A stretch of 24,000 nucleotides of DNA, taken from assembly GCA_038245175.1 (NCBI GenBank), contig JBBRSR010000001.1, positions 191,744-215,743 on the forward strand, written 5' to 3'. Positions 2,307 through 5,892 of the stretch are shown here, in pieces. The DNA comes from Mycobacteriales bacterium. GTDB lineage: Bacteria; Actinomycetota; Actinomycetes; Mycobacteriales; Nakamurellaceae. The notes under the pieces are model-generated. The model was not told the origin of the DNA. It saw only the letters and a program-made list of their open reading frames with translations, and ran no database searches. The translations under genes were made by a program, and so were the position numbers. Numbering within the stretch: the first letter of the stretch is position 1; the number at the start of each line of letters is the position of its first letter.

Positions 2307-2373
2307 TTGTCACCCGCCGGAATCCCCGTTACCGTAATGTGATATCAGCCGGGATGGTAAACCCCCCGGATGC
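2307..2373 (+). promoter_or_regulatory. Predicted sigma-A-type promoter plus conserved 5' leader hairpin, copy 1 (upstream of rpfB paralog 1)
   Basis: TTGTCA (2307-2312), 17-nt spacer, TACCGT (2330-2335, fits TAnnnT). It is followed by CAGCCGGGATGGTAAACCCCCCGGATGC (2346-2373), where CCGGG and CCCGG can pair around a GAUGG-containing loop. The block recurs at 4110-4177 and 5828-5892. Confidence 0.5.
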
Positions 2374-2560
2374 GGGGCGCAGCAAGTCGCCTAACTCGTG
2401 TAATCGCTCGTGGACCCTCCGTGGAGGGAACTGTGGTGAGCGCTAACATGCCGCGTCCCTTGCCTGCCCGGGTAGTTCAAGGCATGGAGTACAACCTATT
2501 TCTATCGAAGAACTCAAACCCAGCGCAGTTGACGGAACCCCCAACGAGGACGCGGCCGAG

Positions 2561-3922
2561 ATGTTGCCGCTCGAAGATATTGAAGAAACCACCACCCCTG
2601 CCAAGGGGTCATTGAAGTCCAGGATCCGCAAGCCGTGGTTCATCGCCGCGGCCGCCTGTGTACTGGCCGTTGCCGCCGTCGGCGGCACGCTGAGCGCGAT
2701 GAGCAAGACCGTCACCATCAACGTCGACGGCCAGGCCCAGACGGTTTCCACGCTGTCCGGATCGGTCAGCGGCGCACTTGATTCCGCCGGCCTGAAGATC
2801 ACCGAGCACGACACCTTGGCCCCCGGGGCCGACACCTCGATCTCGGACGGTTCGACCATTGTGATCAATCGCGGCCGGCTGGTGACGCTGACCGTCGACG
2901 GTCAGCCGACCTCGCTCTGGACGACCGCGCTCACTGTCGACCAGGCTCTTGCCCAGCTGGGCCGCGACTCCGCGGACTACCAGCTCTCGGCCGATCGGTC
3001 GCGCCTCATCCCGCTCGAGGGCCTGTCCCTGACTGCCGACACCCTGCACTCGGTGTCGCTGTCCGTGAAGGGCGTCAACAAGGAGATCGCCACCCCGTCC
3101 AAGACGGTCGGCGATCTGCTCAAGGCACAGAACGTCGTCCTCGGGGTCAATGATCGGGTCACCCCCGCAGTCGGCGCCGCGCTGACCGCGGGCCTGAAGA
3201 TCGCGATCGTCACCCTGCCGACCGTGACCGTCACGGACGGCACCAACGCCGCGGTGCCGTACGTCAGCGACGCCACGGATGTGGCCGGCCTGCTGGCCGC
3301 TCAGGGCATCGCCGTCGGCGCCGCTGACATCGTCACCCCGGCCATCGGCACGCCGCTGACCGAGGGTCTCCAGGTCTCGGTGGCTCGCGTCACCGTGCAA
3401 CAGGTGACCGCAACCGAAGCGGTTGCGCAGCCGGCCGATGAGACCGTGAACTCCTCCTCGCTCGCCGCGGGCACCAGCGAGGTCAAGCAGCAGGGCCAGG
3501 CCGGCTCGGCCACCGTCACCTACGACGTGACCCTGACCAACGGCGTGGAGACCGGGCGGACCGAGACGGGCCGGAGCGTCATCACCAGCGCACTGCCGAC
3601 CATCACCCGCGTCGGCACGGCAAAAGCCGCATCATCGGGCTCGGCCGGCGGCAACACCGGCGTAGTGCCAACCTCGAGCGGCAGCTCGGGCGTCAACTGG
3701 GACGCCATCGCCCGCTGTGAGTCGACCAACAACTGGTCGATCAACACCGGCAACGGCTACTACGGTGGCCTGCAGTTCGACATCGGTACCTGGCTGAGCA
3801 ACGGTGGCGGCGCCTATGCTCCCCGCGCCGACCTGGCGACCAGGGCGCAGCAGATCGCGGTTGCCGAGACCACCTACGCCTCACGCGGGCTGTCCCCCTG
3901 GGCTTGCGGGTACGCCGGCTGA
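2561..3922 (+). CDS. rpfB: RpfB-type resuscitation-promoting factor, paralog 1: TM anchor, four DUF348-like modules, G5, canonical Rpf transglycosylase domain
   Basis: N-terminal TM helix ([22 protein letters not shown]). Repeated TVT.xVDG...INRG DUF348-type modules and a G5-like segment ([30 protein letters not shown]). C-terminus is [32 protein letters not shown]...[17 protein letters not shown]...PWAC, the canonical Rpf signature with the catalytic Glu. Confidence 0.92.
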
Positions 3923-3948
3923 CCCGTTCAGCCTGCAACGCAGACCGC

Positions 3949-3994
3949 AACGCGCATCGGCCCTCATCCAGATGGATGGGGGCCGATGTGCGTT
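3949..3994 (+). terminator. Long stem-loop, likely intrinsic terminator after rpfB paralog 1
   Basis: AACGCGCATCGGCCCTCATCC (3949-3969), loop AGAT, GGATGGGGGCCGATGTGCGTT (3974-3994). This gives 21 bp including two G-U pairs. It begins 27 nt after the stop codon and is followed by GTTGTTGCG. Confidence 0.6.
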
Positions 3995-4109
3995 GTTGCG
4001 TGAATCCGTTGTCACCTGAGTGCTTCCTCGCGCTCCGTGGCCGGAATCGGACGAATACGCGCATCTGGTTGAAACCTGAGGGAGCTGGGTCCAATCCAAC
4101 ACGCGCTCA

Positions 4110-4177
4110 TTGCTGAAGTTGTGATGCATCCGTTATCGTCCCGAGATAACAGCCGGGATGGGGAAGTCTCGGGTGTG
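4110..4177 (+). promoter_or_regulatory. Predicted promoter plus conserved 5' leader hairpin, copy 2 (upstream of rpfB paralog 2)
   Basis: TTGCTG (4110-4115), 18-nt spacer, TATCGT (4134-4139), then CAGCCGGGATGGGGAAGTCTCGGGTGTG (4150-4177). CCCGAGA (4140-4146) can pair with TCTCGGG (4167-4173). Confidence 0.45.
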
Positions 4178-4272
4178 TCCAACTGCTGGCGCGACGTCCT
4201 GCGCTGACGGCTGCGCGCGCCTGCCCGCCACACCCCATCAAGCCGGGCTCGTCCACAGTTGGGTATTCGGTC

Positions 4273-5763
4273 TTGACCATCGCTGAGCGTGTTGACACCC
4301 CGCTGGAACCGGCCGAAGCCGATGCCGCCGCGATCGACCCGATACCGGCCAGGCAGGCGACGGGGCGTTGGCGACGGCCGTTGGTCGTCGGGGTCGTCGT
4401 GGCGCTGGCCCTAGTGGCTGCGGTCGGCGGCGGTGTGCTCGCGATGCGCAAGACCGTCACCGTCACCGTGGACGGGGTCTCCACTCCGGTGACCATGCTG
4501 GCTGGAACCGTGCGCGGCGCGTTGGATGCGGCCGGCCTGCAGGTGGCGGACCACGACACGCTGGCTCCGGCCGCCAACGCGATGGTCTCCGACGGCGACT
4601 CCATCGTGCTCAACCGGGGCCGGCACATCACGCTCACCCTGGACGGTGAGCCGTTCAGCCTCTGGACGACCGCCCGCACCCTTGATGCGGCGCTCGCCGA
4701 GCTGGGTCGCAGTCCCGATGCCTACCAGCTGTCCGCCGACCGCTCCCGACCGATTCCGGTCGACGGTCTCGCCGTTTCCGCCGACACCCTGTACCCGGTC
4801 ACAGTCCATGACCGTGGGGTCAGCCGCACCGTGAAGACCACCTCGACGACGGTCGGTCAGTTCCTGGCAGCCCAGGGCATTGTGATGGGCGTGAACGATC
4901 GGGTCAGTCCGGCCGTCGGCGCCAAGATCGCTGGTGCGAGCACCGTCAACATCGTCACGCTGCCCACGGTCACCGTTCTGGACGCGACAGCGCCGGGCAG
5001 GCTCATCGTCAGCGGCGCGGTGGACGTGGCCGGTCTGCTGGCCGGGGCGGGCATCGCGCTGGGGGCGCAGGATGTCGTGTCGGTCCCGCTCAGCACCCCG
5101 CTGTCGGCCGGTTTGCAGATCGGGATCACCCGGATCAGCACCACCAAGGCCAGCGAACTGGTGCCGATCGAGCAGCCCGCGGACCAACAGGTGGACGACG
5201 GCGCCCTGCTCAAGGGCGACTCCAAAGTGGTGCAACAGGGGCAGCTCGGTCAGGCCCAGGTCATGTACGACATCGTCACAACCAACGGGCTCGAAACCTC
5301 GCGGACCGAGACGGGCCGCGTCACCACGGTCGAAGCACTACCGAACGTCATCCACGTCGGCACCAAGGTGATTGCACCGGCTCGTGCGCCGGCACCGGTG
5401 GCGGCCCAGGCGCCCTCGGTCGCAGCGCCGGTGACCCCCCAGCCCACCCCCACCGTGAGCACCAATCCTCCGGTCGCCGCCACCGGAACCGTGGAACGGG
5501 TCGGCAATCAGGTGTTCTTCCACGATTTCGAGTTCGGCGTCAACTGGGACGGCCTCGCGCATTGTGAATCAACTAACAACCCGCGAGCGATCAATGCAAG
5601 TGGAAAATACACCGGCCTGTTCCAGTTCGACGATCAGACCTGGCGAAGTGTTGGTGGCAGCGGTCGGGCGTACGACGCTTCGCCCGAAGAACAGCTGATG
5701 CGGGCCAAGTTGCTCTTCCAGTCCAGGGGCCTCGCACCGTGGGCTTGCGCCTGGGCGGCCTAG
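4273..5763 (+). CDS. RpfB-architecture muralytic protein, paralog 2: TM, four DUF348-like modules, G5, Pro/Ala linker, variant transglycosylase-like domain
   Basis: Same module order as paralog 1. A P/A-rich linker (APARAPAPVAAQAPSVAAPVTPQPTPTV) is inserted before the C-terminal domain VNWDGLAHCESTNNPRAINASGKYTGLFQFDDQTW...[24 protein letters not shown]. The track start is TTG 4273 with no clear SD, so the start is uncertain. Confidence 0.85.
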   Translation: MTIAERVDTPLEPAEADAAAIDPIPARQATGRWRRPLVVGVVVALALVAAVGGGVLAMRKTVTVTVDGVSTPVTMLAGTVRGALDAAGLQVADHDTLAPAANAMVSDGDSIVLNRGRHITLTLDGEPFSLWTTARTLDAALAELGRSPDAYQLSADRSRPIPVDGLAVSADTLYPVTVHDRGVSRTVKTTSTTVGQFLAAQGIVMGVNDRVSPAVGAKIAGASTVNIVTLPTVTVLDATAPGRLIVSGAVDVAGLLAGAGIALGAQDVVSVPLSTPLSAGLQIGITRISTTKASELVPIEQPADQQVDDGALLKGDSKVVQQGQLGQAQVMYDIVTTNGLETSRTETGRVTTVEALPNVIHVGTKVIAPARAPAPVAAQAPSVAAPVTPQPTPTVSTNPPVAATGTVERVGNQVFFHDFEFGVNWDGLAHCESTNNPRAINASGKYTGLFQFDDQTWRSVGGSGRAYDASPEEQLMRAKLLFQSRGLAPWACAWAA

Positions 5764-5794
5764 CCGTTTGCCCAGATCAGCAAGTTGTGGGCAG

Positions 5795-5820
5795 GGTCAT
5801 ATGTGACCTTTCTATTTCCT
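5795..5820 (+). terminator. Weak hairpin plus T-rich tract after paralog 2
   Basis: GGTCA (5795-5799), TATG, TGACC (5804-5808), followed by TTTCTATTTCC. The stem is only 5 bp, so support is weak. Confidence 0.3.
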
Positions 5821-5827
5821 CGCATGA

Positions 5828-5892
5828 TTGCCGTGCATTCATTTCACCGTTATTGTTCTGTTATACAGCCGAGATGGGGAAGTCCCGGATGC
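5828..5892 (+). promoter_or_regulatory. Predicted promoter plus conserved 5' leader hairpin, copy 3 (upstream of rpfB paralog 3)
   Basis: TTGCCG (5828-5833), 17-nt spacer, TATTGT (5851-5856), then CAGCCGAGATGGGGAAGTCCCGGATGC (5866-5892). Confidence 0.5.

Follow-up and report, generated by a model that had tools for sequence, protein, structure and literature searches.

The rpfB locus and its repeated upstream block

The window analysed here, 24,000 nucleotides (nt) from a Mycobacteriales bacterium (contig JBBRSR010000001.1, forward-strand positions 191,744 to 215,743), carries the gene order metG-tatD-rpfB-rpfB-rpfB-ksgA-ispE-ABCF, and this study concerns the promoter and 5' leader repeated upstream of each of the three tandem rpfB paralogs (rpfB1 to rpfB3), in which a putative MtrA operator and a long-range leader helix were recognised. 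The paralogs encode DUF348-G5-transglycosylase (RpfB-type) proteins (2561-3922, 4273-5763 and 5987-7216). Rpf enzymes cleave the cell's own wall and govern exit from dormancy, and their expression is believed to be tightly restrained. The gene order shares the rpfB-ksgA-ispE synteny of Mycobacterium tuberculosis (Mtb), in which it reads tatD-rpfB-ksgA-ispE.

An earlier note on this DNA, made from the sequence alone, had described a block retained upstream of all three rpfB paralogs, and the block was found on the + strand at 2326-2373, 4130-4177 and 5847-5892. The window contains exactly three copies of the 16-mer CAGCCGRGATGGKRAA, each on the + strand and 5' of an rpfB paralog; at up to 3 mismatches, shuffled sequences yield 1.24 matches, and the chance expectation of the 36-nt pattern of the block is 0.00. 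The gap of 10 nt that had been given between the two halves applies to copies 1 and 2 and not to copy 3, where it is 9 nt, which is why a fixed-gap pattern recovers only two copies. As the three proteins are just 50-53% identical to one another, it was concluded that the block has been maintained by selection and is not a relic of recent duplication.

For comparison, 75 actinobacterial loci were fetched via the protein and not via the motif (loci are cited below by their L numbers). The nearest of those fetched were Nakamurella-type genomes and metagenome-assembled genomes, such as L001 (MetG 79% and RpfB 54-63% identical). A profile of the block matched the 75 loci almost solely on the + strand and 5' of rpf genes: it precedes every rpf paralog in about 18 Nakamurella-type loci, lies 5' of the single rpfB gene in Pseudonocardiales, Geodermatophilaceae and other lineages, and is also present upstream of rpfB genes in Frankiaceae and Micrococcales genomes.

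Promoters and putative MtrA operators

In the earlier note the 5' half of the block had been read as a promoter and the 3' half as the beginning of the transcript. TANNNT -10 hexamers with TTG-type -35 hexamers 17-18 nt upstream are present in all three copies, as had been stated there; the 5' half aligns with the mapped P2 promoter of Mtb rpfB, and homology to the mapped P2 start supports the reading of the 3' half. The DNA part of the block has the form CGTTAYY-N4-YGWKATA, in which the TANNNT -10 is overlapped by a direct repeat. The following features were assigned.

2307..2312, + strand: -35-like TTGTCA of rpfB1, 17 nt 5' of the -10
2327..2344, + strand: MtrA-type repeat CGTTACC-gtaa-TGTGATA of rpfB1, a YGWNAY-N5-YGWNAY match covering the -10 and the predicted start A2342
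2330-2335, + strand: -10 TACCGT of rpfB1, overlapped by the MtrA-type repeat
4110..4115, + strand: -35-like TTGCTG of rpfB2, 18 nt 5' of the -10
4120..4148, + strand: three in-phase MtrA-type half-sites TGTGATG / CGTTATC / CGAGATA of rpfB2, overlapping the -10 and the predicted start A4146
4134-4139, + strand: -10 TATCGT of rpfB2, overlapped by the MtrA-type half-sites
5828..5833, + strand: -35-like TTGCCG of rpfB3, 17 nt 5' of the -10
5848..5865, + strand: MtrA-type repeat CGTTATT-gttc-TGTTATA of rpfB3, overlapping the -10 and the predicted start A5863
5851-5856, + strand: -10 TATTGT of rpfB3, overlapped by the MtrA-type repeat

Base for base, CGTTACCGTaatGTGATA of the window can be aligned with Mtb cGTTACCGTcttGTGAtc (locus L076), a stretch also given as cGTTACCGTcttGTGATc. 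Mtb rpfB has two promoters, and the start of P2 was mapped to A1127955 by differential RNA sequencing (Schwenk et al. 2018, PMC6009663); the activity of P2 was confirmed in reporters through mutation of the -10, and its TANNNT -10 is identical in all mycobacteria examined (PMC6009663). The Mtb start is the A of GTGAT in L076, and by homology to it the starts in the window are predicted at A2342, A4146 and A5863, the A of GTGAT, GAGAT and GTTAT, respectively. All three sites combine a TANNNT -10, a purine start about 7 nt 3' of it and a -35 at 17-18 nt, as is characteristic of sigma-A promoters, and a TTGCC-type hexamer occupies the equivalent -35 position in related loci. Shared with Mtb P2 are the identical -10 TACCGT, the GTGAT start context and a G-rich stretch a few nt past the start (CGGGUGGGG), which takes part in leader structure. 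The leader lengths of about 125, 125 and 220 nt that had been proposed are close to those counted from the predicted starts for genes 2 and 3 (127 and 124 nt); for gene 1 the leader measures 219 nt if ATG 2561 is used and shortens to 156 nt if translation begins at ATT 2498.

The match of the promoter half to the MtrA operator motif had been overlooked in the earlier note. This motif consists of two 7-bp direct repeats, c-G-T/A-n-A-C/T-c, separated by a 4-nt spacer (Gorla et al. 2018, PMC6265350; PMC11215152), and rpfB is a target of MtrA in three chromatin immunoprecipitation sequencing (ChIP-seq) studies and in electrophoretic mobility shift assays (EMSA) and is repressed by MtrA (PMC6265350; PMC11215152). 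All five matches to YGWNAY-N5-YGWNAY in the window belong to the three rpfB promoters and are on the + strand, against a chance expectation of 2.05 matches anywhere on both strands. The boxes share with the known operator the direct-repeat form with its 4-nt spacer and a place in the promoter of rpfB, a verified member of the MtrA regulon, and MtrA would be expected to bind these putative sites. They differ from it in being present three times, once per paralog, and in the extra half-sites of two of the copies, which keep an 11-bp phase relative to the main box: that of leader 2 is upstream of it (4120-4126), and the other, CGAGAT at 5870-5875, is within the segment of leader 3 designated strand A below. 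If borne out, this part of the finding would widen the known link between rpfB and the MtrA regulon in a useful and unsurprising way. A BldD-type palindrome, TNAC-N5-GTNA, was also considered for the box and was set aside as having the wrong spacing.

Long-range pairing in the leader

The proposal that the 3' part of the block acts as cis-regulatory RNA was judged reasonable; the conserved structure is a long-range helix. This 3' part (strand A) is best explained by pairing with a second, C-rich strand located just 5' of the Shine-Dalgarno sequence (SD), designated strand B, which the earlier note had not seen. Strand A reads CCGRG-AU-GGGGAA and strand B canonically CCCC-UG-CCCGG, such that CCGGG:CCCGG and GGGG(AA):(UU)CCCC pairing flanks a 2x2 internal loop in which R-U faces U-G. 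The strands of the three window leaders are as follows.

2349..2360, + strand: leader 1 strand A, CCGGG-AU-GGUAA, its second half departing from the consensus GGGG
2460..2471, + strand: leader 1 strand B, UUGCC-UG-CCCGG, RNAduplex energy with strand A -16.3 kcal/mol
4153..4165, + strand: leader 2 strand A, CCGGG-AU-GGGGAA, forming with 4166-4172 (GUCUCGG) the local hairpin proposed in the earlier note
4233..4246, + strand: leader 2 diverged strand B, CCCCAUC-AAG-CCGG, RNAduplex energy -19.6 kcal/mol
5869..5881, + strand: leader 3 strand A, CCGAG-AU-GGGGAA, with G>A at the fourth position
5951..5962, + strand: leader 3 strand B, CCCCC-UG-CUCGG, in which C>U restores an A-U pair with strand A

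In leader 1, GGUAA:UUGCC is a compensatory change relative to the consensus GGGGAA:UUCCCC, and the rpfB1 orthologues carry further compensatory versions at this place (GGUC:GACC in L001 and GGUU:GACC in L010, beside GGUA:UGCC in the window). In leader 2, GAUGGGG pairs with CCCCAUC through the former internal loop and CCGG pairs with CCGG; the 3' end of its diverged strand B lies 26 nt 5' of TTG 4273 and 14 nt 5' of GGG 4261, in keeping with the family spacing, and a decayed canonical B block, CGCCUGCCCGCC, adjoins it at 4218-4229. In leader 3, the SD GGAG (5979-5982) is followed by a GTG start at 5987, 24 nt past strand B. Across the leaders, strand A follows the start by a median of 7 nt, and strand B precedes the SD by 13-19 nt (median 14) and the start codon by 21-28 nt (median 23, interquartile range 21-23), whereas the enclosed region of 41-194 nt is variable in both length and sequence, even among orthologues.

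The same spacing is found at a revised start for rpfB1. No in-frame ATG, GTG or TTG is present between the upstream stop and 2561, and the SD GGAG at 2486-2489 (14 nt past strand B) together with ATT 2498 (26 nt past it) reproduces the family spacing exactly. The sequence ATTTCTATCGA is kept in orthologues L001 and L010, the latter having an in-frame TGA immediately 5' of its ATT. Translation of rpfB1 probably begins at ATT 2498 rather than at ATG 2561, and an AUU start codon would be unusual.

Covariation between the two strands was assessed in alignment A3, for which the 58 nt after the -10 region were joined to the 64 nt before and across the start codon in 57 leaders aligned with MAFFT, the leaders having been picked by independent profile hits to both blocks. 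Base pairs with compensatory changes across homologues were found: 86.8% of the cells of the helix are paired, and double-sided changes occur in 8 of its 11 pairs. None of 500 shuffles reached the observed value on any of five measures, registers slid along the strands performed worse, and RNAalifold on its own predicted the A:B helix and nothing else. Among the compensatory changes are CUGGG:CCCAG (C-G to U-A) in L013 and GAGG:CCUC in L045. At pair 31:90, GC is present in 52 leaders, GU in 4 and AU in 1; the AU is that of window leader 3 (CCGAG:CUCGG), for which the G.U intermediate is preserved in orthologues L002 and L005. Insertions and deletions are likewise paired: in 11 cases UC-GGGG is matched by CCCC-GUG, in 34 U-GGGG is matched by CCCC-UG, and mixed combinations are absent. 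The bases of the internal loop are near-invariant (U34 in 55, U87 in 56 and G88 in all 57 of the 57 leaders), and in the shortest leaders tested (L024 and L033) the A:B helix is within the minimum-free-energy fold. Covariation of A with B and the fixed distance of B from the start codon are thereby demonstrated in this set of leaders.

A profile search found at least one of the two blocks (A or B) in 58 of the 75 rpfB loci. In loci without the strict motif, relaxed versions of the block (among them GCCGGGGUGGGGAA, and CCGGGGUCGGGGAA in Arthrobacter) were seen, followed 41-194 nt 3' by (UU)CCCC(G)UGCCCGG. A metagenome scan with the pattern A-N70-100-B returned 80 usable loci: rpf lies downstream in 30, a further 11 end shortly past tatD, and the remaining matches, about 39, are chance-like and in G+C-rich DNA. 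Every element-like match flanks rpfB or tatD. One match, in the leader of an Ilumatobacteraceae ahcY (S-adenosylhomocysteine hydrolase) gene (L087), was judged a coincidence; as its relatives lack strand A, and their B-like block belongs to another conserved motif, the element appears to be specific to rpfB.

Proposed control plan and competing explanations

On balance, it is considered somewhat probable that each rpfB paralog has a control unit of its own in two layers, namely an MtrA operator on the promoter and the A:B helix in the leader. Each paralog would then be a separate transcription unit under two stacked controls. At the DNA level, a sigma-A-type promoter (-35 TTGnnn, 17-18 nt spacer, -10 TAYYGT) would have its -10 and start covered by an MtrA-type operator of two or three 7-bp direct repeats, yGWnAYn, in 11-bp phase, and MtrA bound there would occlude RNA polymerase and repress transcription, as reported for Mtb rpfB. 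At the RNA level, strand A, about 7 nt after the start, would pair with strand B, about 14 nt before the SD, closing off the variable domain of 41-194 nt and leaving a fixed single-stranded platform of about 23 nt that bears the ribosome-binding site (RBS). As the distance to the RBS is fixed and the interior is variable, a basal clamp is suggested, which would sequester C-rich and G-rich strands otherwise prone to mispairing. Such a clamp would most likely act post-transcriptionally, as a second layer beneath transcriptional control by MtrA, keeping the RBS platform open or insulated and/or stabilising the mRNA, and expression would fall if strand A were displaced, whether by a trans factor or, in some copies, by the local hairpin. 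Stabilisation or processing of the mRNA, or recognition of the internal loop by a trans factor, may be alternative roles of the helix.

Were this to hold, a common plan of rpfB control, an MtrA operator followed by a 5'-to-RBS helix, would extend across actinobacterial orders, and it would provide an evolutionary frame for the attenuator and B12 switch of Mtb, since the same G-rich strand is re-used there as a terminator arm. It would also supply a short, testable RNA element (about 75 nt in some lineages) for studies of rpfB translation and mRNA stability. The promoter and operator are of a known kind, and the leader helix matches no Rfam family and was not found described in the literature searched. 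The mraW motif is found 5' of an operon for an rRNA methyltransferase and cell-wall functions. This motif (RF01746) and other orphan motifs are conserved leader structures of Actinomycetales with unknown mechanism (Weinberg et al. 2010, PMC2864571); the window element differs from them in its sequence, its associated gene and its lack of an Rfam match, and rpf, ksgA and tatD are unmentioned in the 2010 (PMC2864571) and 2017 motif catalogues.

Several points weigh against the two-layer plan. A generic scan for the Escherichia coli-type sigma-70 consensus called zero promoters at the three sites, an outcome attributed to actinobacterial -10 hexamers resembling TATAAT only weakly. The MtrA site of Mtb rpfB is located only to the resolution of a ChIP peak or an EMSA fragment, and in the window both the start sites and MtrA binding are predictions. 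With regard to the helix, A:B is absent from the minimum-free-energy folds of the window leaders, from which neither it nor the local hairpin is reliably recovered on single sequences, and forcing A:B costs a median of +2.6 kcal/mol. The A:B duplexes of the window leaders are not better than those formed with shuffled targets (z = -1.4 to -2.2; leader 2 z = -1.6), and the whole leaders, very G+C-rich, give z-scores of -2.4, -0.4 and -0.3 against shuffles; as the energy test is non-significant in sequence of this composition, the case rests on the comparison between species. The statistics of that comparison are themselves inflated, because the 57 leaders are related and were pre-selected by both blocks. 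Furthermore, mismatches are frequent in the two outer pairs of the second half-helix, the very high conservation of both strands exceeds what pairing alone explains, and the predicted effect on RBS accessibility is small (0.44 with A:B forced vs 0.37 with strand A blocked; Wilcoxon p = 0.0007).

A more ambitious reading, thought rather unlikely, is that the A:B helix and its invariant loop, kept at a constant distance from the start codon, form a receptor for a conserved trans partner, in which case the element would be an undescribed, Actinomycetes-wide riboregulator of rpfB and the ancestral scaffold of the Mtb terminator and B12 switch. The partner could be an RNA-binding protein, a C-rich small RNA such as 6C competing with strand B, or a small ligand; it could also be KsgA, the 16S methyltransferase from the same transcript, which would recognise a mimic containing GGAA.

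The local 5' hairpin favoured in the earlier note (CCGGGAU / GGGGAA loop / GUCYCGG) could instead be the functional unit, as a stabiliser or attenuator stem, with the complementarity of B incidental. The stability of this hairpin is very high in leader 2 (-14.9 kcal/mol, z = -3.04, equalled by none of 200 shuffles), and several lineages resemble leader 2 in this (z about -3). In Mtb an experimentally verified terminator has the homologous G-rich stretch as its 5' arm, and some Nakamurella-type first-paralog leaders bear a terminator-like hairpin whose 5' arm could compete. In window leaders 1 (z = +0.2) and 3 (-6.7 kcal/mol, z = +0.6) and in many lineages, however, the hairpin is at shuffle level, and its covariation does not rise above shuffles either (74% paired, equalled by 54 of 500 shuffles). 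The G>A change of leader 3 disrupts it, yet is compensated in strand B, and no U tract follows it in the window. The hairpin is not the conserved feature and is improbable as the functional unit; it may act in some copies as a co-transcriptional competitor for strand A. The first-paralog leaders of L004 (about 1420-1500), L006, L009, L011 and L018 contain an attenuator-like element, GGCAGGAC...GUCCUGC and then 5-7 U, with a 5' arm complementary to AAGUCC of the local hairpin; this element is absent from the window leaders. No terminator-like site was found within the three window leaders. The sole such sites on the + strand, 5793-5810 (a hairpin and T-run located 3' of the rpfB2 stop and 5' of the rpfB3 -35) and 5822-5836, are both upstream of the rpfB3 transcription start.

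It was also considered, with still less confidence, that all of the conservation acts at the level of DNA, A and B being inverted protein-binding sites (CCGGG-N2-GGGG; reverse complement of B, CCGGGCAGGGG) or further MtrA half-sites, with no role for RNA structure. A compensatory change in an RNA helix is indistinguishable from the same substitution occurring in each copy of an inverted DNA repeat, a paired indel is also compatible with altered half-site spacing, and strand A begins about one helical turn past the second MtrA half-site, the strand A of leader 3 even fitting the half-site pattern. Among the asymmetric changes in the seven core pairs, wobbles outnumber A.C mismatches by 10 to 1, as expected for RNA, which favours a fold of the sense strand over a DNA inverted repeat. 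The three leaders moreover differ (CCGGG, CCGAG, GGUAA), each with a matching partner, which a single protein specificity would not require. The distance from A to B ranges over 41-194 nt, whereas that from B to the start codon is fixed, and the central dinucleotides are conserved but unlike in the two copies (AU vs CA).

That the leader is a ligand riboswitch, whether of the ydaO (cyclic di-AMP) class, a Mtb-like B12 class or a new one, with A:B as its P1 stem, is very unlikely. Near-invariance of the unpaired loop bases, conservation of both strands beyond the need of pairing, and the reported binding of adenosyl-B12 (AdoB12) by the Mtb rpfB leader would suit such a switch. The enclosed region is nevertheless unconserved in sequence and length, even among orthologues, leaving no aptamer-like core, and with nothing conserved inside the helix and no match to an Rfam model, a standard metabolite riboswitch is unlikely. 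Riboswitches of the ydaO class occur in leaders of actinobacterial rpfA-type and muralytic genes, and the earlier note had suggested this class. The whole window gave no RF00379 match and zero Rfam hits at gathering score; nothing relevant was returned for 2200-6100 at E <= 10, nor for related leaders from other lineages at gathering and permissive thresholds. As no Rfam model matched, the element is not a ydaO riboswitch, from whose conserved multi-helix aptamer it differs in consisting of one long-range helix, interrupted by a small internal loop, around a variable domain.

The parallel drawn in the earlier note with the Mtb rpfB switch did not hold, the switch being absent from the window and only the P2 promoter and the G-rich beginning of the P2 transcript being shared. 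The Mtb RpfB switch is 130 nt long, derives from P1 and is confined to pathogenic mycobacteria (Schwenk et al. 2018, PMC6009663); it requires an extra 79 nt transcribed from P1 (PMC6009663), and it was reported to bind AdoB12 and proposed as a class III B12 riboswitch (Kipkorir et al. 2024 bioRxiv 10.1101/2024.07.19.603033). Compared with the window by blastn-short, the Mtb leader matched nothing beyond 10-15-mers attributable to chance; all of these fell outside the leaders, among them a minus-strand 11-mer (4102-4112) 5' of the rpfB2 promoter, and in the profile search the Mtb locus matched only at the P2 promoter box. The Mtb leader differs further in having no downstream strand B, its G-rich stretch instead supplying the 5' arm for an intrinsic terminator that includes a U tract. 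In the P1 transcript of Mtb (L076), the MtrA-box/P2 region folds as a hairpin at 1345-1373 (GUUCGUUAC / GUGAUCGAAC), and the strand A homologue GUGGGG is the terminator 5' arm. The observation on which the earlier note was built is confirmed, and its interpretation was partly right: the promoter and the cis-acting RNA hold, and the proposed structure and candidate families do not.

Least credible of all is that strand A is the SD of a small upstream open reading frame (uORF), opened by the RTG that ends the block, whose translation controls rpfB: a GUG or AUG stands 6-7 nt past GGGGAAG in leaders 2 and 3, as in many Nakamurella-type leaders, and the very similar Mtb sequence GAGGUCGGGGA is the functional rpfB SD, but leader 1 has no SD-like GGGG, the window frames are unrelated, the RTG is absent from Pseudonocardiales, Geodermatophilaceae and Frankiaceae leaders that retain strands A and B, and control by a leader peptide or uORF was rejected for want of a conserved upstream frame. 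The frames opened in the window by this RTG are 2370-2615, 4175-4288 and 5890-5904 (81, about 37 and 4 codons); that of leader 2 ends just beyond the rpfB2 start, and such frames are unconserved outside Nakamurella-type genomes.

A strong palindromic hairpin lies directly past the rpfB1 stop (3948-3995). It is likely to be of the terminator type, though without a U tract, which would fit an rpfB2 with its own promoter, and it is the source of weak chance Rfam matches (Glutamine-II, E = 0.06, and mir-2068). A match to mir-BHRF1-1 within the rpfB1 coding sequence (3148-3213, E = 0.001, far under the gathering score) was treated as a chance G+C-rich hairpin. In Pseudonocardia (L033, L036-L038, L040, L043, L046 and L047), rpfB starts about 1 kb 5' of the conserved domains, RpfB having a long, low-complexity N-terminal extension, and the leader element precedes this distant start. 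Finally, the ahcY leaders (L087 2737-2868; L160, L161 and L162, about 500-600) share a motif of about 45 nt, AAUCRCCGGGCUGAUUCGAUCGGUGCCUG..GGCCCCKGCCCGGUUC. The one ahcY leader scanned against Rfam (L087) gave zero matches, and the motif could be a leader element not yet described, with a possible link to S-adenosylhomocysteine.

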